From contig DCUH01000073.1 in NCBI GenBank assembly GCA_002327765.1, positions 31,379 to 90,587 of the forward strand: a stretch of DNA of 59,209 nucleotides, in the 5' to 3' direction. The notes under the pieces were generated by a model. It had not been told where the DNA came from. It worked only from the letters and a program-made list of their open reading frames with translations, and did no database searches. Source of the DNA: a bacterium UBA2219. GTDB taxonomy: Bacteria; Desulfobacterota; Deferrimicrobia; Deferrimicrobiales; Deferrimicrobiaceae. This document shows, piece by piece, positions 9,218-49,016 of the stretch. Made by a program: the position numbers and the translations under genes. Numbering within the stretch: the first letter of the stretch is position 1; every line of letters begins with the position of its first letter.

Positions 9218-9221
9218 CCCG

Positions 9222-13532: not shown

Positions 13533-15667
13533 GGCCCGCCTCCTCCGCGGAGCCGCCGGACCTCCTCCAGAATCCGGGCGACTTGCGGCATCGCGCGGAA
13601 CTCCTCCATGGCGTATCGGCATTTCCTTTTCCAGTTTGGGCGCTCCTTCCAGGTGCCCGGGGTGTTCTGCGGCGCCTCTTCCAGCCAGAGGTCCTCCAGG
13701 TTGACGATCAGCGTTTCGGCGGGGCCGGCGGCGAGGCGGGCGAGGCAGCCCCGCAGCGCGTCTCCCGCCGCCGCGACCCCGCGCGGACCTCTTCCGCTTC
13801 CGCAGATCCCCAGGCAGGCCGACAACGCCAGCACGGCCTTCCCCCGCGCCGCCCTTTCCCGTTCCGCGCCGCGGGGGGCGAGAAGCCCCAGGGAAAGGCG
13901 GTCGTCGATGTCGCGCCCCTTCCAGAAGGAGGCGAAGGGAGGCATGTCGTGGGTGTTCATGCAGGCGACGGACCCTTTCGGGACGCGCGCGAGCGCGTCG
14001 CAGCCGCCAGACGACAGGCCGAACTGCGCCACCGACATCCGGAGGAACCCGTGCCGGGACATCGCCGGCCGCACCTGCGGGGGAACCGTCCCGAGGTCCT
14101 CCCCGACGATCCGGGCCCGGTGCCGGTTCGATTCCAGGCAGGCCACGGCGTACAGCTCCTCCGCGGGGTACCGCACGTAGGTTCCCTCGGCGGGCCCCGC
14201 CCCCTTCGGGATCCAGAAGAAGCGGTGCAGCCCCATGACATGGTCGATCCTCAGGATCCCCGCGTGCCGGGCCTGGGCGGCGATGCATTCGCGGAAATAG
14301 GCGTGCCCCTCCTCCCGCGACCGTTCGGGCTGCAGCGGGGGGAAGCCCCAGTCCTGCCCCCGGGTGAAGAAGTCGTCGGGGGGAGCGCCCGCGGAGGCGT
14401 CGAGCGCGAAGAGCGCGCGGCGCCTCCAGACGTCGTAGCCGTCGTAGCTCGCCCCCAGCGGAAGGTCGAGGTAGAGGAGCTTCCTCCCTCCTTCCGATAG
14501 GGCGCGCAGCTGGAGCCGGAGCGCCCATTGGACGAACAGGTGGTACCGTTTCCCCGCCTCGTCGAAATCGCCCGGCCGCAGTAGCCCGTCCCCCGGCGGC
14601 CCGCCCCAGGCGGGCCACGGGGTCCCGCGGCGGTCCCAGGCCGCCCGGAAGGCGGCGTAATCCTCCACCCACGGGTTCTCCGCGAAGAACCGCCGGTATC
14701 CTTCGTCCGAACCGCTCTCGCCCCGGAAGAACCGGCGCGCGAGCGCTTCGAGGACGGGGCGCTTCCTCTCCAGGGCGCGGCGGTGGTCCACGAACCGGGA
14801 GCTCCGGAGCCGTTCCGTCTCTTCCCGGTACGCGGACGACGAGACGAGCGCCTTCGCCTCCCGGCACTCCGCGAAGCCGGGCGCGGCTTCCGGGTCGAGG
14901 TAGATCTCGTTCCACGCGAGACGGCTGCAGGGGGCGTAGGGGCTCGGCTCGAACGGCTCGGGCGCGCAGAACGAGAGCAGCGGGAGCGTCCCGACCGCGC
15001 TGCCGCCCAGCCGCTCCACCCAGTCCATCAGGTCGCGCAGATCCGTCAGGTCCCCGCCGTTCGCGCTCCGGCGGGAATGCAGGGCGTACAGGGGGAGGAA
15101 GACTCCCCACCCGCGGCGCTCTTCCTCCGGCGGGGCCCATGCCCGGGAAGGAGCGGAGACGAGCGTCGCCTCCCCGCGGACCCTCCCCCTGAGCTCCACA
15201 TGAAGCCGGTGGCATCCCATGGGCGGGCTCCACGGCAGGAGGATCCGTTTCTCGACGCACTCCCCGGCGCTCCCGGTCCCCGCACCCGATGGGGGGACGC
15301 GGGAGAGGTCGAAGGCGGCTTCCTTCGCGCCGCCGCCCTCCAGAACGAGGCGGACCCGGACGCGCCCGTTCCCCGCCCGCAGGGGAAGCCTCAACGGAAG
15401 GCTCGCCGGGGCGCCGTCCCAGGAGACGCAGACCGGGGGGCAGACGCGGTCCCAGGCGGATTCCTCCGCGCGCCGGAGCGCGTCCGGGGCGTCACGGGCC
15501 GTCTCCAGCGGCTCCCCGAGGCAGCGAAGCACCGCGACCAGCGTTTCGGGCGGAGGCGTCCTTCTCCCGTGGAGGATGTCGACGTACGAAGTCTGGACGC
15601 CGCGCAGCAGCGCCAGCCGGCGCAGGTCGCGCAGTTCCCGCGAACCTCCCCGGGACGGCGCCGTCAT
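13529..15667 (-). CDS. malQ: 4-alpha-glucanotransferase (amylomaltase, GH77)
   Basis: Start at MTAPSRGG (ATG 15667-15665). GH77 blocks LLYLDLPLGASYDGYDVW, ILRIDHVMGLHRFFWIP, IVGEDLGTVP, ACMNTHDMPP. Confidence 0.85.
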   Translation of the reverse strand: MTAPSRGGSRELRDLRRLALLRGVQTSYVDILHGRRTPPPETLVAVLRCLGEPLETARDAPDALRRAEESAWDRVCPPVCVSWDGAPASLPLRLPLRAGNGRVRVRLVLEGGGAKEAAFDLSRVPPSGAGTGSAGECVEKRILLPWSPPMGCHRLHVELRGRVRGEATLVSAPSRAWAPPEEERRGWGVFLPLYALHSRRSANGGDLTDLRDLMDWVERLGGSAVGTLPLLSFCAPEPFEPSPYAPCSRLAWNEIYLDPEAAPGFAECREAKALVSSSAYREETERLRSSRFVDHRRALERKRPVLEALARRFFRGESGSDEGYRRFFAENPWVEDYAAFRAAWDRRGTPWPAWGGPPGDGLLRPGDFDEAGKRYHLFVQWALRLQLRALSEGGRKLLYLDLPLGASYDGYDVWRRRALFALDASAGAPPDDFFTRGQDWGFPPLQPERSREEGHAYFRECIAAQARHAGILRIDHVMGLHRFFWIPKGAGPAEGTYVRYPAEELYAVACLESNRHRARIVGEDLGTVPPQVRPAMSRHGFLRMSVAQFGLSSGGCDALARVPKGSVACMNTHDMPPFASFWKGRDIDDRLSLGLLAPRGAERERAARGKAVLALSACLGICGSGRGPRGVAAAGDALRGCLARLAAGPAETLIVNLEDLWLEEAPQNTPGTWKERPNWKRKCRYAMEEFRAMPQVARILEEVRRLRGGGGP

Positions 15668-16800
15668 CCCGCCTGCCCTTCGAGCGTCTGCAGGTCGCCC
15701 GAACGCCCCATCAGCTGGACGTACCGGGCGATCCCGCTGCGGGTGATCATCCCCTCGATCCGGCCGCCGCTCGTGACCACCAGCCTTCCGACGTCGCCCC
15801 GGATCATCCGCTCGAGCGCCTTGACGGCGTCCTCTTCCGGGGAAACCTCCCACTCCGCCCGGTGCGGCACGTAGACCGCGGACACCCGCGTGGATTCGCG
15901 CGGCACGTCCTTCAGCTCCTTCAGGGTGAGCATGCCGAGGTACTTCCCGTTTTCCACCACGGGATACCCCCCGTAGCCGTAGCGCAGGAAATACCCGCTC
16001 ACGGCCTCGTCGAGACGGATGGAGGGCGGAACGGTCACCAGGTCCCTCGCCATGATGTGGCGCACCTTGATCCCGTCGAGGATCTCCTGGATCCCCGCCT
16101 GCTGGTAGCTCGCCTTCGCGGCGGTGTACAGGAACCAGCCGATGAGCATGAGCCAGATCCCTCCCGGCATCCCGGTGAACAGCGAGAAGATCCCCAGGAA
16201 GATGAAGAACAGCGCGATCTTCTGCCCGACGCCCGAGGCCTTCTGGGTCGCGTAGAAATAGTTCTTCTTCCGTTTCCAGAGGAACGACCGGAGCACCCTG
16301 CCCCCGTCCATCGGGAACCCCGGGATGAGGTTGAAGGCGGCCAGGATGAAATTGATCCGCGCGAGATAGGAGAAAAGGGCCCGCACGCCTCCTTCCGCCT
16401 GGAGCGTCCCGAACAGGAAGAGGGCCGCGAGGAGGAAGCTCGAGAGTGGCCCCGCGACCGCGATCCAGAACTCGGCGCGGGGGTGCGGCGGCTCGCTCTT
16501 CATCTGCGCCACGCCCCCGAAGATGAACAGGGTGATGCTCTCGATGGGTATGCCGTATCGCCTCGCGACGAAGGAATGGGCGAGCTCGTGGAAGGCCACC
16601 GAGGCGAAGAGGAGAAGCGACGCCAGGGCGCCCTTGATCCAATAGGCCAACGCCGGCAGGTCGGGCGCGGCCTGAGGGAAATAGACCGTCGAAAGCGACC
16701 AGGTGATCAGGCCGAATACGAGAAACCAGGTGAAATGCAGCCGGATCGGGATCCCCATCACCGAGCCGATCTTCCACGCGCCCGCCAGGGAGCCGTTCAT
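15664..16800 (-). CDS. site-2 protease (M50) family metalloprotease with C-terminal CBS pair
   Basis: Start MNGSLAGAW (ATG 16800-16798). Has HELAH zinc motif, AAFNLIPGFPMDGGRV (the NxxPxxxxDG motif), then two CBS-like repeats (IMARDLVTVPPS..., GRLVVTSGGRIEGMITRSGI). Confidence 0.85.
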   Translation of the reverse strand: MNGSLAGAWKIGSVMGIPIRLHFTWFLVFGLITWSLSTVYFPQAAPDLPALAYWIKGALASLLLFASVAFHELAHSFVARRYGIPIESITLFIFGGVAQMKSEPPHPRAEFWIAVAGPLSSFLLAALFLFGTLQAEGGVRALFSYLARINFILAAFNLIPGFPMDGGRVLRSFLWKRKKNYFYATQKASGVGQKIALFFIFLGIFSLFTGMPGGIWLMLIGWFLYTAAKASYQQAGIQEILDGIKVRHIMARDLVTVPPSIRLDEAVSGYFLRYGYGGYPVVENGKYLGMLTLKELKDVPRESTRVSAVYVPHRAEWEVSPEEDAVKALERMIRGDVGRLVVTSGGRIEGMITRSGIARYVQLMGRSGDLQTLEGQAG

Positions 16801-19460
16801 GACGCCCTCCTTTCCAGGGAAGCCCGTCCCCGGATCCATTTGTCCAGTTCCACGGCGACAACGACGGTCATGGAAATCGCCACGATGAGGAGCCAGTCCG
16901 CGCCGTCGAGGGGTACCGTCCGGAAGACCCGCTGCAGCGGAGGGGCGTAGAGCACGGCGAGCTGGGCGAGCAGCGCCGCGATCACGCTGTACAGCAGGAA
17001 CGGGTTGCTGAAGGGGGAGATCCGGAAGACGGACCGGTGCTCGGACCGGCTGTTCCAAACCTGGAAGAACTGGAAGAGGACCATGGTGGTCATCGCGACC
17101 GATCGGGCCTTCTCGATCGACGCGCCGTGGCGCAGCGCGCCGAAATAGGCGAACAGGATCCCGGCCGAGATGGTCAGCCCGACGAGGACGGTCCGCTCGA
17201 GCAGGAGGCGGGACATGATCCCTTCCCGCGGGTCCCGCGGCGGGCGCAGGAGGGTTCCCTCCTCCCCCGGCTCGAAGGCGAGGGCGACGTCCTGCAGCCC
17301 GTTGGTCACGAGGTTGATCCAGAGGATCTGCGCGGGGAGGTAGGGAGCCGGGAACCCCATGAGGACGGAGGCCAGGATCGAGAGGATGCTGGCAAGCCCG
17401 GTGGGAATCAGGAAGAAGGTGACCTTCCGGATGTTGTCGAAGACGATGCGCCCTTCCCGTACGGCGTGGAAGATGCTGGCGAAGTTGTCGTCCGCCAGCA
17501 CCATGTCCGAGGCCTCCTTGGCCACGTCGGTCCCCGTGATCCCCATCGCGATGCCGATATGCGCGGCCTTGAGCGAGGGGGCGTCGTTCACGCCGTCCCC
17601 GGTCATGGCCACGATCTCTCCGCCGCGGATCAGCTGCTTCGCGATCCGCAGCTTGTGCTGCGGCGAGACGCGGGCGTAGACGGACACCTCCCCGGTCTTT
17701 TGGAAGAGGGCGTCGTCGTCCATCGGCTCGATTTCGCGGCCGGTCAGCACGACGGGATCCTTTCCCCCGATCCCCAGCCCCCGGGCGACGGCCGACGCGG
17801 TGACCGCATGGTCGCCGGTGATCATCACGACCCGGATTCCCGCCTTGCGGCACCCTTCCACGGCCTCGATCGCCTCCGGGCGCGCCGGGTCGATCATCCC
17901 CTGCAGGCCGGCGAAGCGGAAGCCGGACTCCGCGTCCCGGTGGTGCAGCTCCGCCATCTCGGCGGGAGCCTCCTTCCACGCGAAGGCGAGCACCCGGAGC
18001 CCGTCCGCGGCAAGGTGGCCCGCCGTTTCGAGGATGTGCTCCTTTTCCCGCTCGCCCGCGGAGCACATCGGGACGACCCGCTCCGGTGCGCCTTTCAGGA
18101 AAACGCGCTTTCCGTCCGCCGTCCTGTGGAGCGTCGCCATGTACCCCCGGTCGGACTCGAAGGGGATGATCGAGATCAGGGGGTTCTGCTCCAGTTCCTT
18201 TTCGCGCAGGATGCGGGCCTTCCCGGCCGCCACGATGAGGGCGCCTTCCGTAGGATCGCCGTCGACCCTCCATCGCCCCGACTCTTCGCGGACCTCGGAC
18301 TCCGTGCAGAGGGCGCCGATCCGGAGAAGCGTCGCCAGGTCCGGGTTCTTCGCCGGGTCCGCCGGGTCGCCGTCCCGGAGGACCTCGCCGACCGGCTCGT
18401 AGCCGGTGCCCGTCACCTCGTACGTCCGGGCCCCGTCGTGGAGCACCTTCACCGTCATCTCGTTCCGGGTGAGCGTCCCGGTCTTGTCGCTGCAGATGAC
18501 CGTCGTGCTGCCGAGCGTCTCGACGGCGGGGAGCCGGCGGACGACCGCCTTCTGGCGCGCCATGCGGCTGACCCCGATGGCGAGAACGATCGTCACGACA
18601 ATGGGAAGCCCCTCGGGCACCGCGGCGACGGCGGCGGTCACTGCGGTCATGAACATGTCCTTGACGGGCTCCCCGACGAGGAGCCCCGCCAGGAAGAGGA
18701 GAACGGACGCCCCCAGGACCAGGATTCCGATCATGTGCGCGAAGCGCTCCATCTTCTGCTGGAGGGGCGCCTTGGCGGCCCCCACCTCGCGTACTTCCCG
18801 CGCGATGCCACCCAGGACGGTGGAGCTCCCGGTAGCGACCACGATTCCCCTGCCCCTGCCGTTCAGGACGATCGTCCCCATGAACGCCATGTTCCTCTGG
18901 TCGCCCGGGGTGAGGTTTTCCTCCGGAATGGGGGTGTGGATCTTCGCCGCGGGAAGCGATTCGCCGGTAAGCATCGCCTCCTCCACGGAGAGCTCCAGGG
19001 AACGAACCAGCCGGAGGTCGGCGGGCACGCGGGCGCCGGAGGCCAGGAGCACGATGTCCCCGGGGACCAGTTCCTCGCTCGGGATCTCGCGTTCCTTCCC
19101 TTCCCGGACGACCCGGGCCTTCGGCACCTCGAGCTTCCGCAGCGCGCGGACGCTTTCCTCCGCCCGGTATTCCTGGAAGAATCCGATGACCGCGTTCAGA
19201 AGAACGACGAAGAGGATGACGCCCGCGTCCGTGAATTCCCTAAGCAGCAGGGTGACCAGGGCCGCGAGGAGCAGGATATAGATGAGGGGGCTCGTGAACT
19301 GGTTGAGGAAGATGCGGAACCGGTTGATCTCCTCCTCTCCGGCGAGGCGGTTCGGTCCGTGCTCCGCGAGCCGTTCCCTCGCCTCCGTTTCGGCGAGGCC
19401 GCTTTCCCGCGTTTTCGTCTCCGCGAGAACCTGTTCCGCTTCCATCCGGTACCAGTCCAT
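16797..19460 (-). CDS. cation-transporting P-type ATPase (type II, SERCA/PMCA-like)
   Basis: 887 aa with [19 protein letters not shown] (TM4), TGDHAVTA and [21 protein letters not shown] sits immediately after the mrpG stop. Confidence 0.9.
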
Positions 19461-39834: not shown

Positions 39835-40779
39835 TTAGGATCTATTCGAATCGCCCCGGATGTCAAGGGAAGCCGCCGAAGCCGGCGGATTGCCTGGGCG
39901 GGACGACAGGAAGCGGCGGAAGCCTTCCGCGGCGGGGCTCAACGGGGAGTTGCGGGCATAAAGCATGTAGATCGGGCGATGGAGATTGAGATCGGACACG
40001 CGCACGGCGCAGAGATGGCCGAGTATGACTTCGAGCGTCGCCGACCGCGAGGAGACGATCGAAATGCCCAGGTTCGCCGCCACGGCCCTCTTGATGGCCT
40101 CGGTGCTGCCCAGCTCCATGGAGTGTCGCAGGGAAACGCCGGCTTTCCTGAGCTCCTCTTCCATGATTTCCCGGGTTCCGGAGCCTTTCTCCCGCAGCAG
40201 GAAAACGTCTTCGGCGAGGAGCTTCGCCGTGACATGGTCCTTCTCGGCCAGCCAATGGTGCGGGGAGACGATCAGCACGAGATCGTCTTCCAGATACGTT
40301 TCCATGGCGAGCTCCGAATCGGGCACGGGCGGACCGATGAAGCCGATGTCCGCGGTTCCTTCCTGGACGGCGCGCAGAACCCGTTCCTTGTTCGGGATGT
40401 CCAGGGAGATCTCGATCCCCGGGTAGAGGTCCTTGAACGCCCCCAGCACGTCCGGGATCATGTAGATCCCTATCGTGCTCGCTGCGCTGATCCGGAGATG
40501 CCCCCGGACGAGCCCTTTCAGCCCGTCGATCTCCTCCCGGGCCTCCGAGAGGATCTGCAGGACCCGGTTGGCGTGCTGCTGCAGGATCCGGCCGGCCTCG
40601 GTGAGCGTCAGGACCCGCCCCTTCCGGATGAAGAGGGGCGTCCCGAGGGATTCCTCGAGGGCCAGGATCTGCCTGGATATCGCGGGCTGGGAGAGGTGGA
40701 CATCTTTTGTCGCCCGGGAGATCCCCCGGTTCCTGGCGACCGCGAGGAAGGTGCGGAGACTGTGGATGCCGATATCCAT
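39835..40779 (-). CDS. LysR-family transcriptional regulator
   Basis: Start MDIGIHSLRTFLAVARNRGISRATKDVHLSQPAISRQILALEESLG (wHTH) plus a substrate-binding domain. Divergent from the 40884 operon. Confidence 0.9.
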   Translation of the reverse strand: MDIGIHSLRTFLAVARNRGISRATKDVHLSQPAISRQILALEESLGTPLFIRKGRVLTLTEAGRILQQHANRVLQILSEAREEIDGLKGLVRGHLRISAASTIGIYMIPDVLGAFKDLYPGIEISLDIPNKERVLRAVQEGTADIGFIGPPVPDSELAMETYLEDDLVLIVSPHHWLAEKDHVTAKLLAEDVFLLREKGSGTREIMEEELRKAGVSLRHSMELGSTEAIKRAVAANLGISIVSSRSATLEVILGHLCAVRVSDLNLHRPIYMLYARNSPLSPAAEGFRRFLSSRPGNPPASAASLDIRGDSNRS

Positions 40780-40793
40780 GCGGGTCCGACCTC

Positions 40794-40818
40794 GATGTAT
40801 TACCGTAATGCATACATC
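40794..40818. promoter_or_regulatory. candidate LTTR box: GATGTAT-N11-ATACATC (T-N11-A core)
   Basis: 7-nt perfect inverted repeat separated by 11 nt, 15 nt upstream of the lysR ATG, in the AT-rich divergent intergenic region. Confidence 0.4.
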
Positions 40819-40883
40819 TGATAAAAAATATGCATTTAAATTATAAATTGTTTTCGCGGAAAATAGAAGTGAAAGGAGACCCC

Positions 40884-41357
40884 ATGAACACCGGCGGACT
40901 GGAAGCAAAGGACATCATGACCCGCACCGTCCACACGGCGCACCCGACGGACCCGCTTCGCAAGGTGATCGGTACCATCTGCCGGTACAGGGTCAGCGGG
41001 GTCCCCGTGGTGGACCGGAAGGGGCATCTGGTGGGGCTGATCTCCGAACGCGACATCCTTTACGCGATGTACCCCGGTACGGAACGGTCTTCCGGCAAGC
41101 CCTCCGGCCGGAAGGCGGTGAAGGCCCCAGGGAGCATCGACGAGCTGACGGCCCGGGATGTCATGGTGGTCAAGGTCGTCACGGGAAGGCCGGACAGCGA
41201 CGTGCTCCGCCTGGCCTCCGTCATGGCGCTCCGGAAGATCCGCAGGATCCCCATCGTCGAGGGTAGGAAGCTCGTGGGCATCGTGAGCTACGGGGACGTG
41301 TGCAGGGCGATTTTCGGAGGGAAAGGAGGACGCGGATGTTCGAGAAGAATGTTCTGA
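40884..41357 (+). CDS. CBS-pair domain protein
   Basis: ATG 40884 with SD AAAGGAG. Two CBS repeats (IMTRTVHTAHP...GVPVVDRKGHLVGLISERDIL, VMVVKVVTGRP...IPIVEGRKLVGIVSYGDV). Confidence 0.75.
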   Translation: MNTGGLEAKDIMTRTVHTAHPTDPLRKVIGTICRYRVSGVPVVDRKGHLVGLISERDILYAMYPGTERSSGKPSGRKAVKAPGSIDELTARDVMVVKVVTGRPDSDVLRLASVMALRKIRRIPIVEGRKLVGIVSYGDVCRAIFGGKGGRGCSRRMF

Positions 41358-42850
41358 CCTTGTCCGAAAGGCTGGAGTACGGGGCGAAGGATGCCCCGGC
41401 CCTCCTGTCGCCCGGCCGAGGGCCGGTGACCTTCGGGGCGCTCCGGGGCGGCGTCCGCCGCCTCGCCGAGCGGCTCTCGGTCCTCGGCTTCGGCAGGAAC
41501 GACCGGATCGCCATCGTGATGGAGAACGGCCCGGACCTGGTCCTCTCCCTTCTCGCGGCGGCTTGTTGCGGAACGGCCGTCCCGCTCAACCCGAAGTACC
41601 GGCCCGACGAGTTCGCCTTCTATTACGGGGATTCCGGGGCGAAGGCGGTGATCGTCAAGCCCGGCACGTTCCCGGACGCTCTCGCCGCCGTCACGCCGGG
41701 CATGACGGTGATCCACGCCGTGACCGGCCCTTCGGGCGAGCTGCGTCTCGACCCCGCCGGTCCCTCCGGGCCGGCGCGCCGGTACGAAGCTCCGGGTCCC
41801 GACGACGTCGCGATCCTGCTGCACACGAGCGGGACCACGAAGCAGCCCAAGCGCGTGCCGATCCGTCACCGCAATCTGGCCGCCTCGGCCGGGAACGTCG
41901 TCCGCACCTACCGGCTGACCCCGGACGACGTCTCGCTGTGCGTGATGCCGCTCTTCCACATACACGGCATATGCGCCTCGCTGCTGGCCCCCCTGTCCGT
42001 CGGCGGGCCGGTGGTCTGCCCCCCCCCGTTCGACGCGCTGCGTTTCTGGGGATGGGTGGAGGAGTTCCGCCCCACCTGGTATTCGGCCGTGCCGTCGATG
42101 CACCAGATGCTTCTGGCCCGCGCCGGACGGAATGCGGATATAATCGGGAAATACCCGTTCCGGTTCATCCGTTCCTGCAGCTCCTCGCTGGCGCCCACGG
42201 TACTGGCCCAAATGGAGGAGGTGTTCGGCGCTCCGGTTCTCGAAGCGTACGGTATGACCGAAGCTTCCCATCAGATGACCAGCAACCCGCTTCCACCGGG
42301 CGTCCGCAAGCCCGGCACGGTCGGCTTCGGCCAGGGCGTCGAGGTGGCCATCATGGACGAGTCCGGAACGATATTGCCCGGGGGCCTGATCGGCGAGGTC
42401 GTCGTGCGCGGGTCGAACATCATGGACGGCTACGAGAACAACAAGGAGGCGAACGACACGGCGTTCGCGGACGGGTGGTTCCGCACGGGGGACGAGGGAT
42501 TGATGGACGAGGAGGGCTACCTCACCATCACGGGGCGTCTCTCCGAGCGGATCAACCGGGGAGGGGAGAAGATCTCGCCCCTGGAGATCGACCATGTCCT
42601 GCTCCGCCACCCGGCGGTCGCCGAGGCCCTCGCATTCGGGGTGCCCCACCCGACGCTCGGGGAGGACGTCCACGCGGCGGTCGTGTTGAGGGGCCCCGCC
42701 TCCGAGCGGGAGCTGCGCAGCCACTGCGCCGAGCTCGTCGCGGACTTCAAGGTGCCCGCCCGCATCCACTTCATGGAGTCGCTGCCGTACGTGGGGACCG
42801 GGAAGCTCCGCCGCAACGTCATGGCGAAAGCCCTGGCGCTGGCGGGATAG
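41336..42850 (+). CDS. AMP-forming acyl-CoA ligase, oxalate--CoA ligase (AAE3/Pcs60)-like
   Basis: ATG 41336 (SD AAGGAGG) overlaps the CBS gene by 22 nt. LLHTSGTTKQPKRVP, FRFIRSCSSSLAP, FGAPVLEAYGMTEASHQMTSNPLPP and INRGGEKISPLEID closely follow the plant/yeast oxalyl-CoA synthetase blocks as I recall them. Confidence 0.75.
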   Translation: MFEKNVLTLSERLEYGAKDAPALLSPGRGPVTFGALRGGVRRLAERLSVLGFGRNDRIAIVMENGPDLVLSLLAAACCGTAVPLNPKYRPDEFAFYYGDSGAKAVIVKPGTFPDALAAVTPGMTVIHAVTGPSGELRLDPAGPSGPARRYEAPGPDDVAILLHTSGTTKQPKRVPIRHRNLAASAGNVVRTYRLTPDDVSLCVMPLFHIHGICASLLAPLSVGGPVVCPPPFDALRFWGWVEEFRPTWYSAVPSMHQMLLARAGRNADIIGKYPFRFIRSCSSSLAPTVLAQMEEVFGAPVLEAYGMTEASHQMTSNPLPPGVRKPGTVGFGQGVEVAIMDESGTILPGGLIGEVVVRGSNIMDGYENNKEANDTAFADGWFRTGDEGLMDEEGYLTITGRLSERINRGGEKISPLEIDHVLLRHPAVAEALAFGVPHPTLGEDVHAAVVLRGPASERELRSHCAELVADFKVPARIHFMESLPYVGTGKLRRNVMAKALALAG

Positions 42851-42865
42851 GAAAGGGGGAGGGCC

Positions 42866-43858
42866 ATGCGGATCGCGATCGTCGGGGCGGGAGCCATCGG
42901 GGGATATCTCGCGGCGCGGCTGATCCTCTCAGGGCAGCCGGTGACCGTGATCGCGCGGGGCGCGAACCTGGCGGCCATCCGCTCGTCGGGCGTCACGCTG
43001 CGCCTGCCCGACGGCACGGAGGAGAAGGCCCGCCCGGCGGTCGCGACCGACGACGCCGACGCGGCCGGCCCGCACGACGTCATCGTCGTGGCCGTGAAGG
43101 GGCAGCAGCTCGCGGCGCTTGCGCCGTCCCTGGCCCCGCTGCTGGGGCCGGAGACCGCGGTTGTCCCCGCGCAGAACGGGATCCCCTGGTGGTATTTCCA
43201 GATGCACGAAGGGCCCTTCGCCGGGCGGCGGCTGGAATCGGTCGATCCGGGCGGTGCGATATCGGCCCACATCGCCCCGGGGCGGGTGATCGGCTGCGTC
43301 ACGTACCAGGCGGCCGAGCTCGAGGCGCCGGGCGTGGTCCGCTTTGTCGAGGGGAACCGGTTCACGCTGGGCGAGCCGGACGGATCGAAGAGCGAGCGGG
43401 CGCAGGCGCTGGCCGGCGTCCTCACCCGGGCCGGCCTGAAATGCCGCGTCCGGACCGACATCCGCACCGAAATCTGGGTGAAGATCCTCGGCAACATGAC
43501 GTTCAATCCGATCAGCGCGCTCACGCGGGCCACGCTCGGGGAGCTGATCGGGTTCGCCCCGACCCGCGAGCTGGCGGCCGCGACGATGGGCGAGGCCCTG
43601 GAGGTGGCCTCCCGGCTCGGCGTCTCGCCCGGCATAACGATCGAGCAGCGTATCCAGGGAGCCTCGCAGATGGGGGCCCACAAGACGTCCACGCTCCAGG
43701 ACATCGAGGCAGGCCGCCCGACGGAGGTGGAGTGGCTCCTCGGGGCCGTTTCCGAGATCGCGCGCTGGCTCGAGGTGCCTACTCCGCGGATCGACGCGCT
43801 GTACGCCTGCCTGAAGCTGCTGGAACGCACGACTTCCGCGAAAAGATCTTCAACATAA
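42866..43858 (+). CDS. 2-dehydropantoate 2-reductase (PanE/ApbA) family oxidoreductase
   Basis: 330 aa. MRIAIVGAGAIGGYLAARL Rossmann motif, ...EIWVKILGNMTFNPISAL..., ...KTSTLQDIEAGRPTEVEWLLG... Confidence 0.8.
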   Translation: MRIAIVGAGAIGGYLAARLILSGQPVTVIARGANLAAIRSSGVTLRLPDGTEEKARPAVATDDADAAGPHDVIVVAVKGQQLAALAPSLAPLLGPETAVVPAQNGIPWWYFQMHEGPFAGRRLESVDPGGAISAHIAPGRVIGCVTYQAAELEAPGVVRFVEGNRFTLGEPDGSKSERAQALAGVLTRAGLKCRVRTDIRTEIWVKILGNMTFNPISALTRATLGELIGFAPTRELAAATMGEALEVASRLGVSPGITIEQRIQGASQMGAHKTSTLQDIEAGRPTEVEWLLGAVSEIARWLEVPTPRIDALYACLKLLERTTSAKRSST

Positions 43859-43879
43859 ATAAAGGGGAAGGAGAAAGAC

Positions 43880-45667
43880 ATGCCGAAGATGACCGCGATG
43901 GACGCCGCCGTGAGAATCCTTGAGAGCGAGGGGGTCCGGCACATATTCGGCATCCCCGGGGCGGGGATCCTGCCGTTCTACCGTTCCCTCAAGGACCTGG
44001 GAACCATACAGCACTTCCTTTGCCGGCACGAGGAGGGCGCCATCCACATGGCCGACGGCTACGCCCGCGCCATCGGAACGATCGGGGTCTGCGCCGCCAC
44101 CTCGGGCCCCGGCGCCAGCAATTTCGTGACGGGCCTCTATACCGCCCAGGTGGACTCGATACCTCTCCTGGCCATCACCGGCCAGAACGTGAAGGCGCAG
44201 CTGGGACGGGAAGCGTTCCAGGCGGTCGACATAGCCGCGATCGCGAGGCCGGTCACCAAGAAGTCCTACTGCGTGCAGGAGCCGGCCATGGTCCCGTGGG
44301 TGTTCCGGGAGGCGTTCCGGATCATGAGGGAAGGGCGCCCCGGCCCGGTGCTGATCGACCTGCCCCTCGACGTCCAGAAGGGCGAGATCGAATACGACCC
44401 GGAGACCGATTCCCGGCTTCCGGTCTTCACGACCCCGCCCGACACGAGGCAGGTCTCGAAGGCGCTGGACATGCTGCTTTCGGCGGAGAAGCCCGTCATG
44501 CTGCTGGGGGGGGGCGTGATCCTCGCCGATGCCTGCGCGGAGTTCCTGAAGATCGCCGAGATCCTCCAGATCCCGGTCCTCACAACATACATGGGGAAGA
44601 GCGGCATCCCGTGGAACCACCCCCTCGCGGCCGGCGGCGTGGGGATCCAGTGCAACACCCGGATGGGGAACAAGACGTTCCTCGAATCCACCCTGGTGCT
44701 CGCGGTGGGCGCCCGGTTCAACGACAGGCACACCGGCGCCATCAACGTGTACAAGGGGAACCGGAAGTTCATCCACATCGACGTGGACCCGGGCCAGCTC
44801 GGAAAGAACATCATGCCGGACCTCGGCATCTGCGCGGACGCCAGACTGACGCTGCAGGCCCTCCTGGCCGAGATCAGTCGGAGGGGGATCAAGGCGGCCC
44901 CGGCGAAGACGGAGATCGCCATCGGGCGCGCGCAGATGGAGCGGAAGACCGACTACGAGAACGTTCCCATCAAGCCGCAGAGGGTGTTCAAGGAGATCAA
45001 CGGGTTCTTCGACGAGGAGACGGTGTTCGTGACCTGCATCGGCCTGAACCAGATCTGGTCCGGCCAGCTCCAGCGGATCGCGAAGCCCAGGCACTACCTC
45101 GATTGCGGAGGCGCGGGTCCGCTGGGCTGGGACATGCCCGCATCCATCGGGGCCAAGATCGCCCGGCCGGACAAGACGATCGTCCAGGTCGTGGGGGACT
45201 TCGGGTTCCAGTTCTGCATGGAGGAGCTGCCCGTCGCGGTGATGTACGGCGTCCCGTTCGTTTGCATCGTGCTGAACAACGGGTACCTGGGCCTGATCCG
45301 CCAGGCGGAGAAATACAACTTCGACATGGACTTCGAGGTGCAGCTCTATTACGAGGCCCAGGCGGCCGGCGCGGGGATGGCCGAGGCCCGCATGGCCGCC
45401 GCGGGGGGCGGGGGGACGGTCGCGGTCGCCGCATCGTCGGCGAAGACGCCGGCACCGCTCGGAAAGAAGGGGTCGGGGTTCGATTTCGTGAAATTCGCGG
45501 AGGCGTGCGGCGCGGCGGGGGAGCGCGTCACCGAGCCGGGCGAGATACGGAACGCCTTGAAGAGGGCGGTGGAATCCGGCAGGCCGTACGTCGTCGAGAT
45601 CATCATGGAGCGGGACACGGACTGCCCGATGGGCGCTTCGATCGACGCGGTAAAGGAATTCGAATGA
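43880..45667 (+). CDS. ThDP-dependent enzyme, glyoxylate carboligase (tartronate-semialdehyde synthase)-like
   Basis: 595 aa, collinear with E. coli Gcl as recalled (MPKMTAMDAAVRILESEGV / MAKMRAVDAAMYVLEKEGI; DNVPIKPQRVF; GPLGWDMPA; LNNGYLGLIRQ; ...PMGASIDAVKEFE). Confidence 0.75.
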   Translation: MPKMTAMDAAVRILESEGVRHIFGIPGAGILPFYRSLKDLGTIQHFLCRHEEGAIHMADGYARAIGTIGVCAATSGPGASNFVTGLYTAQVDSIPLLAITGQNVKAQLGREAFQAVDIAAIARPVTKKSYCVQEPAMVPWVFREAFRIMREGRPGPVLIDLPLDVQKGEIEYDPETDSRLPVFTTPPDTRQVSKALDMLLSAEKPVMLLGGGVILADACAEFLKIAEILQIPVLTTYMGKSGIPWNHPLAAGGVGIQCNTRMGNKTFLESTLVLAVGARFNDRHTGAINVYKGNRKFIHIDVDPGQLGKNIMPDLGICADARLTLQALLAEISRRGIKAAPAKTEIAIGRAQMERKTDYENVPIKPQRVFKEINGFFDEETVFVTCIGLNQIWSGQLQRIAKPRHYLDCGGAGPLGWDMPASIGAKIARPDKTIVQVVGDFGFQFCMEELPVAVMYGVPFVCIVLNNGYLGLIRQAEKYNFDMDFEVQLYYEAQAAGAGMAEARMAAAGGGGTVAVAASSAKTPAPLGKKGSGFDFVKFAEACGAAGERVTEPGEIRNALKRAVESGRPYVVEIIMERDTDCPMGASIDAVKEFE

Positions 45668-45692
45668 CGCCGCCGCGCGGAGGGGGGACGCC

Positions 45693-46976
45693 ATGCCGGA
45701 CCTGAAGGAACGCGCCGTCGCCGTGCTGAGGGAGTTCAAGGGGGACGCCTACGCCTTCGGCGGCGGGGTGCTGGACGACGCCCCGGGGAGGTTCGCCGCC
45801 GGATTCGGGAAGAGGGCCCTGCTGATCGGGCCCATGGCTTCCGGGTGGTTCCGGCCGCACAGGGAGAGGATCCTTCGGTCCCTGGAGAAGGCGGGGGTCG
45901 AGGCGGCGGGCGTCGCACAGTCCGCCGCCCCCAACGCCCCGGTCGAGGACGTATATCGCATCCGGGGAAGCATCCTCGACGCGAATCCGGACGTCATCGT
46001 CGCGGCCTCCGCCGGCTCCGGCATCGACGCCGTGAAGGCCGCCGCCGTCCTGGCGGCGCTGGGGGGGGATCCTCCCGACATCGAGCCGTTCTTCGGCGTC
46101 GGCAAGGTCACCGAGGCGTTGAAGGCCCGGGGCCGCTCCCTGACGCCCGTCGTTGCGGTGATGATGGCGGCCAGCTCGGGTTCGCACCTTACCAAGTACG
46201 CCAACGTCACGGACGTGGCCGCGGGGCAGAAGAAGCTCATCGTCGACGACGCGATCATCCCGCCGCGGGCCGTCTTCGACTACGACGTCACCGCCACGCA
46301 GCCGATGGACCTTACGCTGGACGGAGGGCTGGACGGGATCGCGCATTGCCTGGAGGTGTACTACGGCGCCGCTCCGGCCGTCCGGGAGAAGGCGAAGCGG
46401 GCGGCCGAGCTCGGGATCGAACGGATCGTCGCCGGGCTGGTCGAGGCGAAAAAGGACCCCGCGAGCCGGGAGGCGAGGACGCTGCTGGGGCTGGGGACCG
46501 ACCTCGGCGGATACGCGATCATGATCGGCGGGACGTCGGGGGCCCACCTGACCAGCTTCTCCCTGGTCGACGTCCTGAGCCACGGCCGGGCCTGCGCGCT
46601 GATGAACCCGTACTACACCGTGTTCTTCGCGCCGGCCATCCAGGAGCAGCTCCGTACGGTCGGGCGCATCTACGCGAGGCACGGCTTCCTTGACGCGGAC
46701 GCGGACAGGCTCTCCGGCCGGGACCTGGGGAAGGCGGTGGCCGGGGCGATGGTCGCCTTCAGCCGGTTCCTCGGGTTCCCGACGCGCCTGAGCGAAGTGG
46801 AGGGGATCGGGAGGGAGCACATCGAGCGCTGCCTCCGGGCGGCGAAGAACCCGCAGCTGGAAATGAAGCTGAAGAACATGCCGGTGCCGCTCCGCGCGGA
46901 CCAGGTGGACGGGTACATGGGTTCCATCCTGGAAGCGGCCTGGTCGGGGGACTTCGACCTCGTCCGGGAAATGTGA
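45693..46976 (+). CDS. iron-containing (group III) alcohol dehydrogenase family protein
   Basis: 427 aa with GSGIDAVKAAA, GLDGIAHCLEVYY, GGTSGAHLTSFSLVDVLSHGRACA (metal-ligand His pattern). Confidence 0.8.
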   Translation: MPDLKERAVAVLREFKGDAYAFGGGVLDDAPGRFAAGFGKRALLIGPMASGWFRPHRERILRSLEKAGVEAAGVAQSAAPNAPVEDVYRIRGSILDANPDVIVAASAGSGIDAVKAAAVLAALGGDPPDIEPFFGVGKVTEALKARGRSLTPVVAVMMAASSGSHLTKYANVTDVAAGQKKLIVDDAIIPPRAVFDYDVTATQPMDLTLDGGLDGIAHCLEVYYGAAPAVREKAKRAAELGIERIVAGLVEAKKDPASREARTLLGLGTDLGGYAIMIGGTSGAHLTSFSLVDVLSHGRACALMNPYYTVFFAPAIQEQLRTVGRIYARHGFLDADADRLSGRDLGKAVAGAMVAFSRFLGFPTRLSEVEGIGREHIERCLRAAKNPQLEMKLKNMPVPLRADQVDGYMGSILEAAWSGDFDLVREM

Positions 46977-48274
46977 CACGGCGGATGGGCGGGGGAGTGA
47001 ACGTCGATCTCCTGTATGGCCGGAAGGGTCTCAGCGTCCGGCTGCCGGGCGGCCTCAGGACCACGGTGGTCTCCAAGCGCCCGATGGAGCCCGTGCCCGA
47101 CCCGGATCGGGCGGTGCGGGAGGCGCTGGAGAGCCCGTCGGGATGTACGCCGCTCCGGGAGATGGCGTGCGGACGGAAATCGGCCTGCATCCTGATCTGC
47201 GACGTCACGCGCCCCGTGCCGAACGGGACGCTGCTTCCCCCGCTCGTCGAGACGATCCGCCGGGCCGGCGTCCCCCGGGAGAATATCCTGATCCTGGTCG
47301 CCACCGGCCTGCACCGCCCCAACGAGGGGGAGGAGCTGCGCGCGGTCGTCGGCTCGGACGAGGTTCTGCGCTCCGTCCGGGTCGAGAACCATTTCGCAAG
47401 GGACGACGGGGCCCACGCGGATCTCGGGAGGACGTCCTCGGGGATCCCGATCCGGATCGACCGGAGGTTCGTCGAGGCGGACCTCAAGATCGTCACCGGC
47501 CTGGTGGAGCCCCATTTCATGGCGGGCTACTCCGGAGGCAGGAAGGTGGTCGCACCCGGGATCGCCCACGTCGACACGATCCTCGCTTTCCACGGCCCGA
47601 AGGTCCTGGAACACCCCGGTTCCGCCAACTGCGTCATCGAAGGGAACCCGCTGCACGAGGCGCAGATCGAGATCGTGCGGGCGATCGGCGGGATCGCGGC
47701 GCTGAACGTGGCCATCGACGAGGATCGGCGGATCGGGTTCGTGAATTTCGGGGGGATCGAGGCCAGCCACCTCGAGGCGGTGGAGTTCATGCGGAAAAGC
47801 GCGGAGGTGCCGCTGCCGCGCCGCTTCCGGACGGTCGTCACGTCCGGAGCCGGGTATCCGCTCGACGCGACGTACTACCAGACCGTGAAAGGGATGGTCG
47901 GGGCGCTGGACATCCTCGAGCCCGGGGGCACCGTCGTCATCGCCAGCGAGTGCTCGGAGGGGATGGGCAGCGGGGAGTTCGTAGCCGCCCAGCGGCTCCT
48001 GCGGGAGTCAGGCCCGGAGCGGTTCCTCGAGATCATCTCGAAGCGGGGCCGGCCGAAGATCGACGAGTGGCAGACCGAGATGCTGGTGAAGGCGCTGCGG
48101 GCCGGGACCGTCAAGCTTTACACCACGGGGCTCTCCGAAGCGGAGCGCCGGGACGCCTGCGTGGAATCCGTCGTCTCCGTGGAGGATGCCGTCGCCGCGA
48201 GCGTCCGGGCCCACGGGGATCCCCGCATCGCCGTGATCCCGGAAGGCCCCTACGTCATTCCGTCCTGCCGCTGA
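46973..48274 (+). CDS. LarA-family (nickel-pincer nucleotide-dependent) 2-hydroxyacid racemase/epimerase homologue
   Basis: GTG 46973 overlaps the ADH TGA (GTGA); alternative ATG at 46985. CDVTRPVP, LVATGLHRP, EPHFMAGYSGGRK, ILAFHG and GYPLDATYYQTVKGM are collinear with L. plantarum LarA. Confidence 0.8.
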   Translation: MTRRMGGGVNVDLLYGRKGLSVRLPGGLRTTVVSKRPMEPVPDPDRAVREALESPSGCTPLREMACGRKSACILICDVTRPVPNGTLLPPLVETIRRAGVPRENILILVATGLHRPNEGEELRAVVGSDEVLRSVRVENHFARDDGAHADLGRTSSGIPIRIDRRFVEADLKIVTGLVEPHFMAGYSGGRKVVAPGIAHVDTILAFHGPKVLEHPGSANCVIEGNPLHEAQIEIVRAIGGIAALNVAIDEDRRIGFVNFGGIEASHLEAVEFMRKSAEVPLPRRFRTVVTSGAGYPLDATYYQTVKGMVGALDILEPGGTVVIASECSEGMGSGEFVAAQRLLRESGPERFLEIISKRGRPKIDEWQTEMLVKALRAGTVKLYTTGLSEAERRDACVESVVSVEDAVAASVRAHGDPRIAVIPEGPYVIPSCR

Positions 48275-49016
48275 TTCCGCCGGCCCAATCGATCCGGATA
48301 TCGCAGATCTCCCTGCCCCCGCTGCGGATCGAGTGATCGGAGGCGAGGGTCCCGCCCCCCTCGGAGATCTCCGAAAACATCACGGCCTCCTCGCCGGCCT
48401 TGAGCTCCTTCTTGTAGTGGACCCGGACCCTCACCGCCTCATGCCCGTGGACGAAGTCGGCCGGGAGCGACCAGAGCGCCCATTCGACGTACCGGACGTT
48501 GTTGACGTGCCCGTTGTTGTCCAGGTCGGCCGTCCCGACCCGGATCGGGAGCGGCTTCCCGGCGATTCCGGGGAGGTCTTCCAGCGGGTCGAAGGACGCC
48601 GCGGATTCCGCGGGCACCCCGAAGCCCGCGCAGATCTCTTCCGGCACCCGGACCGGCCTCTTCAGGTTCATGTCCGTGAAGGCCCAGACGGAGCGGGCCT
48701 CGGCCAGCGGAGTTCCTCCCTCCGAGTAAACGCGGTATTCCCGGTTCGCCAGGAACCGCTTGAAGGTCGTCGGGCGGGTCACGATCCGGACGGTCTCGTT
48801 GAATCCGGGCCGGGCGTGCAGGGAGATGTCCCATTTGAGGAGGAGAAAGAGCTGCCCGGTCCGGAAGTACCGGTCGAGCGTGATCCCCATCGCCTCGCTG
48901 TGGAGGGTCGCGATGTCCTCGAAGTAATGCATCAGCGCCGGCAGCGTCAGCCGCCGCTTCCGATCGATCTCGTAATAGTGCACCAGGTAGTCCCTGGAGA
49001 ATTCCGAAGGGGGCAC
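48255..49016 (-). CDS. acyl-ACP thioesterase
   Basis: 253 aa, double hot-dog pattern: YLVHYYEIDRKRRLTLPALMHYFEDIA... and ...DLDNNGHVNNVRYVEWAL... Confidence 0.8.
   Translation of the reverse strand: MPPSEFSRDYLVHYYEIDRKRRLTLPALMHYFEDIATLHSEAMGITLDRYFRTGQLFLLLKWDISLHARPGFNETVRIVTRPTTFKRFLANREYRVYSEGGTPLAEARSVWAFTDMNLKRPVRVPEEICAGFGVPAESAASFDPLEDLPGIAGKPLPIRVGTADLDNNGHVNNVRYVEWALWSLPADFVHGHEAVRVRVHYKKELKAGEEAVMFSEISEGGGTLASDHSIRSGGREICDIRIDWAGGISGRTE

Follow-up and report, generated by a model that had tools for sequence, protein, structure and literature searches.

Gene content and organization of the cluster

A 59,209-nucleotide stretch of contig DCUH01000073.1 from the bacterium UBA2219 (assembly GCA_002327765.1), referred to here as the window, contains a cluster of seven genes at positions 39835-48274. 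A gene for a LysR-family regulator is transcribed divergently from six genes that encode, in order, a protein with a pair of CBS domains, an AMP-forming coenzyme A (CoA) ligase, a PanE-family reductase, a thiamine diphosphate (ThDP)-dependent enzyme related to glyoxylate carboligase (Gcl), an iron-containing alcohol dehydrogenase (Fe-ADH) and a homologue of the nickel-pincer-nucleotide (NPN) enzyme LarA (Table 1). All seven genes, which an initial annotation made from the DNA letters had listed in this order, were found in the list of open reading frames, with Pfam and NCBIfam, and by genes called independently on the source contig, which is k141_143531 of the ENA metagenome assembly ERZ27315072 and 220 kb long. 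That annotation had also read the cluster as leading from oxalate through oxalyl-CoA and glyoxylate to three-carbon (C3) compounds, and our analysis, which is computational throughout, supports this reading. On balance, we favor the view that the locus is a LysR-controlled operon that would assimilate oxalate into C3 compounds via glyoxylate.

The genes of the operon are as tightly spaced as first described, with a 22-nt overlap between the CBS and ligase genes and then 15, 21 and 25 nt between successive genes. The reported GTGA overlap between the Fe-ADH and LarA genes holds only if LarA starts at the GTG at 46973, but not with the ATG at 46985 chosen by the gene caller, which leaves a gap of 8 nt; with either start the two genes abut. 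A GGAGA Shine-Dalgarno sequence lies 7 nt 5' of the CBS gene, and a scan for promoters and terminators returned nothing above shuffle expectation in the operon. GC content is uniform at 0.65-0.70 and does not distinguish the cluster from its surroundings. The nearest relatives are metagenome-assembled genomes (MAGs) labeled Candidatus Deferrimicrobiaceae.

Table 1. Features of the cluster, with positions given in the window
Feature	Position	Strand	Remarks
LysR-family regulator	39835-40779	-	314 aa; HTH_1 and LysR_substrate domains; divergent from the operon
Candidate operator	40808..40835		Perfect inverted repeat of 7 bp, ATGCATA-N14-TATGCAT; lies in AT-rich intergenic DNA between the divergent genes
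Stand-alone CBS-pair protein	40884-41357	+	157 aa; first gene of the operon; two CBS domains
AAE3/Pcs60-type AMP-forming oxalate-CoA ligase (predicted)	41336-42850	+	PDB matches and AAE3 alignment
PanE2-type NADPH oxalyl-CoA reductase (predicted)	42866-43858	+	Identity to Methylobacterium extorquens PanE2
Gcl-like ThDP carboligase, predicted tartronate-semialdehyde synthase	43880-45667	+	Retains the catalytic Glu (RHEEG)
Ala/Gly-rich insertion of ~38 aa in the C-terminal domain of the ThDP enzyme	45356-45469	+	Unaligned to E. coli Gcl
Divergent group-III Fe-ADH, predicted tartronate semialdehyde (or hydroxypyruvate) reductase	45693-46976	+	Fe-ADH and ADH_Fe_C domains
LarA homologue (nickel-pincer-nucleotide), predicted glycerate racemase	46973 or 46985 to 48274	+	Match to LarAIp

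Predicted conversion of oxalate to glyoxylate

The ligase consists of an N-terminal AMP-binding domain (PF00501, 245 bits) and a C-terminal domain (PF13193, 61 bits). Its four best matches in the PDB are all oxalate-CoA ligases (5ie0, 6qjz and 8aff at 385-402 bits, and 8atd, a truncated chain, at 286 bits), and include AAE3 of Arabidopsis, a legume AAE3 and yeast Pcs60. The next ANL class, malonyl-CoA synthetase, reaches 209 bits, and the oxalate-CoA ligases score up to twice as high as any other ANL enzyme. Alignment with Arabidopsis AAE3 is full length (residues 9-498) with ~46% identity. The description of this gene as AAE3/Pcs60-like is therefore borne out, the protein being closer to characterized oxalate-CoA ligases than to other characterized ANL enzymes, and we predict from this homology that it activates oxalate. 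Use of an AMP-forming ligase would render the conversion of oxalate to oxalyl-CoA effectively irreversible.

Assignment of the PanE-family gene to the PanE2 type was likewise strengthened. For this comparison the M. extorquens panE2 coding sequence was taken from the supplement of a yeast engineering study (PMC12686821). The protein from the window is 52% identical to M. extorquens PanE2 (WP_015822665; 318 bits) over its full length, in an alignment of 323 residues that covers residues 1-322, as against only ~31 bits to E. coli PanE (1ks9), and it scores 428 bits against NCBIfam NF005089, for which the cut-off is 223. For PanE2 of M. extorquens, reduction of oxalyl-CoA with NADPH has been measured in enzyme assays (PMC8411744). 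With close homology to characterized enzymes at both steps, the predicted passage from oxalate to glyoxylate is well grounded.

The ligase and reductase genes are adjacent in the window, in four related loci described below (L003, L005, L009 and L055) and in L090, which is one of three Chloroflexota loci that carry the same pair (62-66% identity for the ligase and 61-64% for the reductase) in surroundings that have no ThDP gene. The genes of the pair overlap in L090, and in the other two Chloroflexota loci (L091:5483-9020 and L092:1366-4903) a single gene of the phosphoribulokinase/uridine-kinase family lies between them. Recurrence of the pair in Chloroflexota without a ThDP gene suggests that it is a portable module for converting oxalate to glyoxylate.

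A conserved core around a predicted carboligase, with probable alternative sources of glyoxylate

The ThDP enzyme contains the three domains of ThDP enzymes defined in Pfam, and its nearest characterized relative is Gcl. The top PDB match is Gcl (2pan, 547 bits), with acetolactate synthase at 328 bits, and identity to E. coli Gcl is 45%. The clade of ThDP homologues that are linked to an Fe-ADH gene has in common with Gcl the Gcl-specific positions I393 and L421, along with the LGLIRQ segment. In a rough neighbor-joining tree built from a search of 1.8 billion cluster representatives, this clade is monophyletic and sister to the canonical Gcl group that has Val at the position of E. coli Val51, and both lie within a wider set of Gcl-like proteins that retain Glu. 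The low-complexity insertion listed in Table 1 is found in homologues of ~594 aa and not in those of 562-565 aa. Homology together with gene context leads us to predict that the enzyme is a tartronate-semialdehyde synthase.

In order to examine this context, we surveyed loci anchored on the Fe-ADH in species-representative genomes, where at least 550 places were found, of which 80 were kept, and mapped homologues of the cluster genes. Conservation of the gene order, which had been put forward as a check, was seen in four other Deferrimicrobiaceae-like MAG species (L003, L005, L009 and L055), in which the divergent LysR gene is followed by the CBS, ligase, PanE, ThDP and Fe-ADH genes, with or without LarA, at 56-90% amino acid identity. 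That the arrangement recurs in four other species indicates that the gene order is not due to chance. Locus L012 has the same arrangement minus the ligase and PanE genes. A ThDP gene is present in 32 surveyed loci and is always immediately 5' of the Fe-ADH gene. Downstream sequence of at least 2.5 kb is available for 23 of these; genes for a GlcD/GlcE/GlcF-type glycolate dehydrogenase (GlcDEF) are found in 15 of the 23, usually under an IclR regulator, and the AAE3-type ligase and PanE2 under LysR with a CBS gene in 4 of the 23, as in the window. The two sets never occur together (0/23), one or the other (GlcD/F, or ligase with PanE2) is present in 19 of the 23, and a LarA homologue is found in 18. 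Locus L026 has GlcDEF and an AMP-binding ligase, but the latter is unrelated, being only 29% identical to that of the window.

Given that GlcDEF and the ligase with PanE2 both yield glyoxylate and are mutually exclusive, glyoxylate would be the shared node, and this is the strongest argument for glyoxylate as the substrate of the ThDP enzyme. The alternation resembles an exchange of one glyoxylate-generating module for another. Other neighbors concern the product. A MOFRL-type glycerate 2-kinase gene lies just 5' of the cluster in L014, L027 and L031, and in L005 (BMS3Abin14) LarA is followed by pyruvate kinase, an arrangement that resembles the gcl...pykF operon of Pseudomonas; these neighbors point to glycerate as the product.

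A reading of the core as an acetolactate/acetoin pathway, in which LarA and GlcDEF would supply pyruvate to an acetolactate synthase that is followed by the Fe-ADH, was rejected because the ThDP enzyme is far nearer to Gcl and because the window has PanE2 and the oxalate ligase.

Several related loci depart from the common layout. In L003, on a 2-Mb Deferrimicrobiaceae-like contig, the operon ends in two small cupin genes (11397-12105) that replace LarA. An Old-Yellow-Enzyme-type flavin oxidoreductase gene follows the Fe-ADH in the IclR-type locus L007 (11336-12652), where a racemase of the LarAH10 family (595 bits, above the cut-off) is encoded 5 kb downstream. The carboligase genes of L009 (8190-9975), L043 (8173-9961) and L055, as well as the PanE gene of L055, have apparent frameshifts or truncations, and these are either assembly errors in the MAGs or pseudogenes.

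The iron-containing alcohol dehydrogenase

The top PDB match of the Fe-ADH reaches only 76-88 bits, and the protein is remote from solved or named members; the family to which it belongs is 56-77% identical across phyla, and no characterized member was found. Its fold is that of PF00465/PF25137 and not of NAD_binding_2/NAD_binding_11, which places it outside the GlxR/GarR family. Among 22 homologues, the metal ligands D214, H218, H285 and H297 and the residues G107-G108-S109 of the Gly-rich NAD(P) motif are invariant or nearly so, and these positions align to methanol dehydrogenase 8zrl. Residue R299, beside H297, is invariant where other Fe-ADHs have Val or Gln, and would fit an anionic substrate. 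The nearest named families in NCBIfam are 4-hydroxybutyrate dehydrogenase, sulfoacetaldehyde reductase and a phosphonate-pathway dehydrogenase, all of which reduce anionic aldehydes. The position of the gene right after that of the carboligase would fit reduction of tartronate semialdehyde to glycerate.

Homologues of hyi, glxR, glxK, glcD/F, MOFRL kinase, malyl-CoA lyase and sucCD were searched for with tblastn and none was found in the 59-kb window. The suggestion that the usual hyi and glxR genes are replaced by an Fe-ADH and LarA gains support from comparative genomics, through the conserved trio of ThDP, Fe-ADH and LarA genes. A context search from the LarA side recovered two loci, L093 and L095, arranged as IclR, ThDP, LarA and GlcDEF without the Fe-ADH and with a carboligase of the Glu type, and here a GlxR-like beta-hydroxyacid dehydrogenase gene (L093) or a D-2-hydroxyacid dehydrogenase gene (L095) is nearby. 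In both loci (L093:6348-14540 and L095:6044-14844) a 783-aa transketolase-like gene comes after GlcD-GlcE-GlcF, and in L093 the gene for the GlxR-like reductase lies upstream, as do genes for a class-V aminotransferase and a lipoate-protein ligase.

The Fe-ADH also has neighborhoods with no carboligase gene. In L015 (2209-11284), L042, L044, L035 and L022 it is found with GlcDEF, succinyl-CoA-synthetase-like (malate thiokinase-like) subunits, an HpcH/HpaI (malyl-CoA-lyase-like) protein and a SerA-like dehydrogenase, a gene set that resembles the malyl-CoA route of anaerobic glycolate oxidation. Other partners in loci without a ThDP gene are DHDPS-type aldolases and ABC transporters. In Bacillota (L056:7538-11278, L064, L078 and L079) an Fe-ADH of 58-62% identity comes after a split transketolase and is followed by a distant LarA homologue of ~460 aa; in L056 it also follows a gene of the ADP-dependent kinase family. 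Annotation of these Bacillota contexts (transketolase, ADP-dependent kinase, LacI, GGDEF and ABC transporters) gave no common substrate.

The LarA homologue

The best PDB match of the LarA homologue is LarAIp of Isosphaera pallida (9eid/9eia, 373 bits). Using the residue list and numbering of PMC11851776, we found that the counterparts of LarAIp R73, H107, H173, the NPN-tethering Lys, Y294, Q295, K298 and Q357 are conserved, and that one pocket residue differs, LarAIp L174 being Phe. The identical residues comprise the two catalytic His and the Arg, Tyr, Gln and Lys that bind the carboxylate. All NCBIfam LarA-family scores are below cut-off (the best is Ni_dep_LarA, at 353 versus 460), which leaves the protein outside the lactate, malate, LarAH10 and LarAH14-16 subfamilies. 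LarAIp works best on lactate and 2-hydroxybutyrate, with L-glycerate next (PMC11851776). LarAH43, from Clostridium pasteurianum, acts on glycerate with about the efficiency it has for lactate, and a Gln has been proposed to account for its specificity for glycerate (PMC11770544). The same Gln is present in the homologue from the window. Gene context and active-site conservation suggest a racemase of the type that acts on short-chain 2-hydroxyacids, and more specifically a glycerate racemase.

The LarA gene is linked to the ThDP gene both with and without the Fe-ADH, and some LarA homologue is found in 42 of 83 Fe-ADH loci. The Fe-ADH and LarA may therefore serve a metabolite pool that is reached from several directions, the simplest candidates for which are glycerate, tartronate semialdehyde and hydroxypyruvate.

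The direct succession of ThDP and LarA genes in L093 and L095, with no Fe-ADH between them, raises the alternative that the substrate of LarA is tartronate semialdehyde, a compound that also counts as a 2-hydroxy acid. The enzyme would either racemize it or shift a hydride from C2 to C3 to give hydroxypyruvate, taking the place of Hyi, and the Fe-ADH or another dehydrogenase, such as the D-2-hydroxyacid dehydrogenase near the L095 cluster, which could reduce hydroxypyruvate, would then make glycerate. A Hyi homologue is found in none of the 28 flanked loci with an Fe-ADH at least 63% identical to that of the window, hyi sits right after gcl in canonical operons, and NCBIfam does hold a family of NPN-dependent hydroxyacid isomerases (LarAH14/15/16). 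Nevertheless, the protein matches that isomerase family poorly, at 75 bits where the cut-off is 740, and the active site is near-identical to that of LarAIp, a plain racemase. We know of no LarA-type enzyme that acts on tartronate semialdehyde, and tautomerization between tartronate semialdehyde and hydroxypyruvate can proceed non-enzymatically. We consider this alternative unlikely.

Proposed pathway and alternatives

In the pathway that we propose, the AAE3-type ligase would convert oxalate to oxalyl-CoA at the expense of ATP (giving AMP and PPi), and the PanE2-type reductase would use NADPH to reduce oxalyl-CoA to glyoxylate. The Glu-retaining Gcl-like enzyme would then condense two glyoxylate into tartronate semialdehyde with release of CO2, and the Fe-ADH, in the place of GlxR, would reduce tartronate semialdehyde or its tautomer hydroxypyruvate to glycerate. 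Finally, LarA would interconvert L- and D-glycerate, so that the product would be entirely accessible to a D-glycerate kinase whose gene would lie elsewhere in the genome. The first three steps are well supported as predictions, the first two through close homology and the third through homology and context, and the last two, which draw on gene context and active-site conservation, are plausible.

A number of observations weigh against this scheme. Firstly, the ThDP enzyme scores under both NCBIfam Gcl cut-offs (736 versus 791 for NF008431, and 616 versus 711 for TIGR01504), and a Glu (RHEEG/S) occupies the position of E. coli Val51 in all 31 Fe-ADH-linked ThDP homologues, that of the window included, whereas E. 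coli Gcl and two canonical Gcl representatives have Val (RHVEG). Replacement by Val of the otherwise universal ThDP-activating Glu is said, in work ascribed to Kaplun et al. in 2008, to be a hallmark of Gcl. The Fe-ADH-linked homologues also have Asp where E. coli Gcl has N283. The term Gcl-like therefore stands in the sense that Gcl is the nearest characterized enzyme, but not in the sense of a canonical Gcl, and with the Glu retained and scores below cut-off, the reaction could differ from that of Gcl. Secondly, a GlxR-like reductase gene is also present in 11 Fe-ADH loci, in which case the Fe-ADH may not be what reduces tartronate semialdehyde, and the Fe-ADH family occurs without a ThDP gene in the several other contexts described above. 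Thirdly, if (R)-tartronate semialdehyde goes to D-glycerate in a direct reduction, there is no evident need for a racemase. Racemic or L-glycerate may be formed, or LarA may act on tartronate semialdehyde itself. In addition, genes for a glycerate kinase, an oxalate transporter and larB, larC or larE were not found among the scanned open reading frames of the window. Lastly, LarA homologues as a rule show linkage to GlcD/GlcF-type dehydrogenases (PMC7583248), and part of the LarA association could for this reason concern D-lactate.

There are two further alternatives. The ligase and PanE homologue could have another small acid as substrate, for example malonate, glycolate or some 2-oxo acid, with the ThDP enzyme performing a different carboligation, in which case the cluster would not be for oxalate. 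The ThDP enzyme does fall outside the curated Gcl family, the top NCBIfam model of the ligase is the FadD7 family, albeit below cut-off (404 versus 650), and PanE-family enzymes are described in 10.1101/2024.01.05.573888 as promiscuous 2-oxoacid reductases. Against this stand the full-length similarities of the ligase to AAE3 and of the reductase to PanE2, the recurrence of the two genes as neighbors in another phylum, and the sister loci that carry a glycolate dehydrogenase in their place, for which the product is glyoxylate. Taken together, we regard a substrate other than oxalate as very improbable.

Alternatively, the last two genes could lie outside a glycerate pathway, with the Fe-ADH using another aldehyde or aldehyde acid, for example reducing glyoxylate to glycolate as a redox valve or for detoxification, or using glycolaldehyde, and with LarA handling lactate or another small 2-hydroxy acid. 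Consistent with this, partners of the Fe-ADH in loci without a ThDP gene (GlcDEF with malate-thiokinase-like and malyl-CoA-lyase-like proteins, DHDPS-type aldolases and transketolases) involve glyoxylate or glycolaldehyde, GlxR-like genes coexist with the Fe-ADH as noted, and links of LarA homologues to D-lactate or glycolate-type dehydrogenases are frequent (PMC7583248). However, reduction of glyoxylate to glycolate beside GlcDEF would be a futile cycle, the Fe-ADH gene comes immediately after the carboligase gene in 32 of 32 ThDP loci, and loci that lack the Fe-ADH have a GlxR-like or 2-hydroxyacid dehydrogenase instead. Furthermore, the loci showed no aldehyde dehydrogenase by which glycolaldehyde could be connected to glycolate, and a role of the Fe-ADH in ethylene glycol or glycolaldehyde metabolism was set aside as less likely for lack of this accompanying enzyme. 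We judge that such a separate role for the two genes is not probable, and retain reduction and racemization at the level of glycerate as the preferred assignment.

A broader proposal, possible but doubtful at present, is that the trio of Glu-retaining carboligase, Fe-ADH and LarA constitutes a distinct and widespread anaerobic glycerate pathway, in which an NPN enzyme would be an obligatory part of central two-carbon (C2) assimilation, either through inversion of L- or racemic glycerate or through isomerization of tartronate semialdehyde to hydroxypyruvate.

Regulator, candidate operator and CBS protein

The LysR protein is below every NCBIfam equivalog cut-off. Its gene adjoins the cluster in L003, L005, L009, L012 and L055, at 67-86% identity, and the block TATTAC..GCATA..ATATGCATTT in the intergenic region between the LysR and CBS genes is kept in all six LysR-type loci, which represent six species. 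We infer that the LysR protein would bind the inverted repeat listed in Table 1 as candidate operator, which is part of this conserved motif. No catalytic domain was detected in the CBS protein with Pfam or NCBIfam, and its gene occurs in every LysR-type locus, even in L012, where the ligase and PanE genes are missing. Rather than contributing a pathway step, the CBS protein probably functions as a subunit for regulation or ligand sensing. Consequently, of the four genes first thought to form a compact oxalate route, the ligase, PanE and ThDP genes keep that place and the CBS gene probably does not.

Other genes in the window

On the minus strand downstream of the operon is a gene for an acyl-ACP thioesterase (48255-49016); it is convergent with the LarA gene, and 20 nt at the 3' end of the latter (48255-48274) are shared by the two. 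An alpha-glucan block extends over 6347-16861 with genes for two alpha-amylase-family proteins, a GH57/DUF3536 protein and a 4-alpha-glucanotransferase, and within it, at 14-16 kb, the window reaches its highest GC content (0.725). In Pfam scans the rest of the window carries unrelated genes, which serve alpha-glucan metabolism or encode an Mrp antiporter, a P-type ATPase, a ClC channel or a hybrid-cluster protein.

Significance and comparison with known systems

Soils and sediments contain abundant oxalate and glycolate, both of them C2 compounds. Oxalotrophy is surveyed by way of the marker genes oxc and frc, and routes such as a ligase with PanE2 are thereby missed, a point also made in PMC13409138. 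A link to the glyoxylate/glycerate node would give a testable function to the Fe-ADH family, with its at least 550 places in species-representative genomes, and the Glu-retaining carboligase clade offers a natural test of the idea that Gcl chemistry requires the catalytic Glu to be lost. If the predicted role of LarA is correct, it would be the first physiological role for a glycerate racemization so far seen only in vitro, and should LarA instead isomerize tartronate semialdehyde in an intramolecular hydride shift, the reaction would be of a type new to the family. A compact cassette of ligase, PanE2 and carboligase would also be of interest for engineered one-carbon (C1) and C2 assimilation, for which PanE2 is already in use (PMC8411744).

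The initial annotation held that the variant pathway had not been described before, and this is upheld in part. In our literature search, no publication was found that joins Gcl with lactate racemase or LarA, or tartronate semialdehyde with an iron-containing alcohol dehydrogenase, and a search for Deferrimicrobia with oxalate returned nothing relevant. Context surveys of the LarA superfamily mention GlcD/GlcF-type neighbors but not Gcl or Fe-ADH (PMC7583248). On the other hand, racemization of glycerate by LarA enzymes is known in vitro, and the overall logic of taking oxalate to glycerate is classical.

For the first two steps, the route proposed here, activation followed by reduction, is the same as that of oxalyl-CoA synthetase and the reductase of oxalyl-CoA (PanE2) in M. 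extorquens AM1. Glyoxylate in M. extorquens is reported, in work ascribed to Schneider et al. in 2012, to enter a variant of the serine cycle. The cluster described here differs in that these genes share one operon with a carboligase module, and the host is an anaerobic Deferrimicrobiaceae-like bacterium. The PanE2 route of M. extorquens AM1 (Schneider et al. 2012) is cited in passages of PMC8411744 and PMC13409138.

Cupriavidus (Pseudomonas) oxalaticus and Oxalobacter formigenes have the same overall chemistry, from oxalate through oxalyl-CoA, glyoxylate and tartronate semialdehyde to glycerate. Classical oxalate assimilation in C. oxalaticus was reportedly described in work by Quayle. Both organisms form oxalyl-CoA with a formyl-CoA transferase that is coupled to oxalyl-CoA decarboxylase, and have a GlxR-type reductase, whereas a ligase and an Fe-ADH would serve here. 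Neither frc nor oxc is present in the operon, and elsewhere in the window no Oxc-like ThDP gene was detected, frc not having been specifically searched for there. Enzyme activities leading from oxalate to glycerate in O. formigenes are cited in passages of PMC8092247.

The canonical glycerate pathway of E. coli and Pseudomonas, encoded by gcl-hyi-glxR-(glxK/ttuD-pykF), likewise takes two glyoxylate through tartronate semialdehyde and glycerate to phosphoglycerate, and an anaerobic dichloroacetate fermenter was found by proteomics to use a Gcl pathway with canonical GlxR, Hyi and Gck (PMC8092247). In contrast, the cluster described here has a Glu-retaining carboligase, an Fe-ADH in the place of GlxR, no Hyi, an added LarA and no kinase gene in the window. 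As for the racemase itself, LarAIp (Sar, or LarAH2, of I. pallida) and LarAH43 are NPN-dependent racemases of short-chain 2-hydroxyacids that both racemize glycerate in vitro. The studies of these two enzymes gave glycerate racemization no physiological role, whereas here the LarA gene sits in an operon predicted to serve C2 assimilation.

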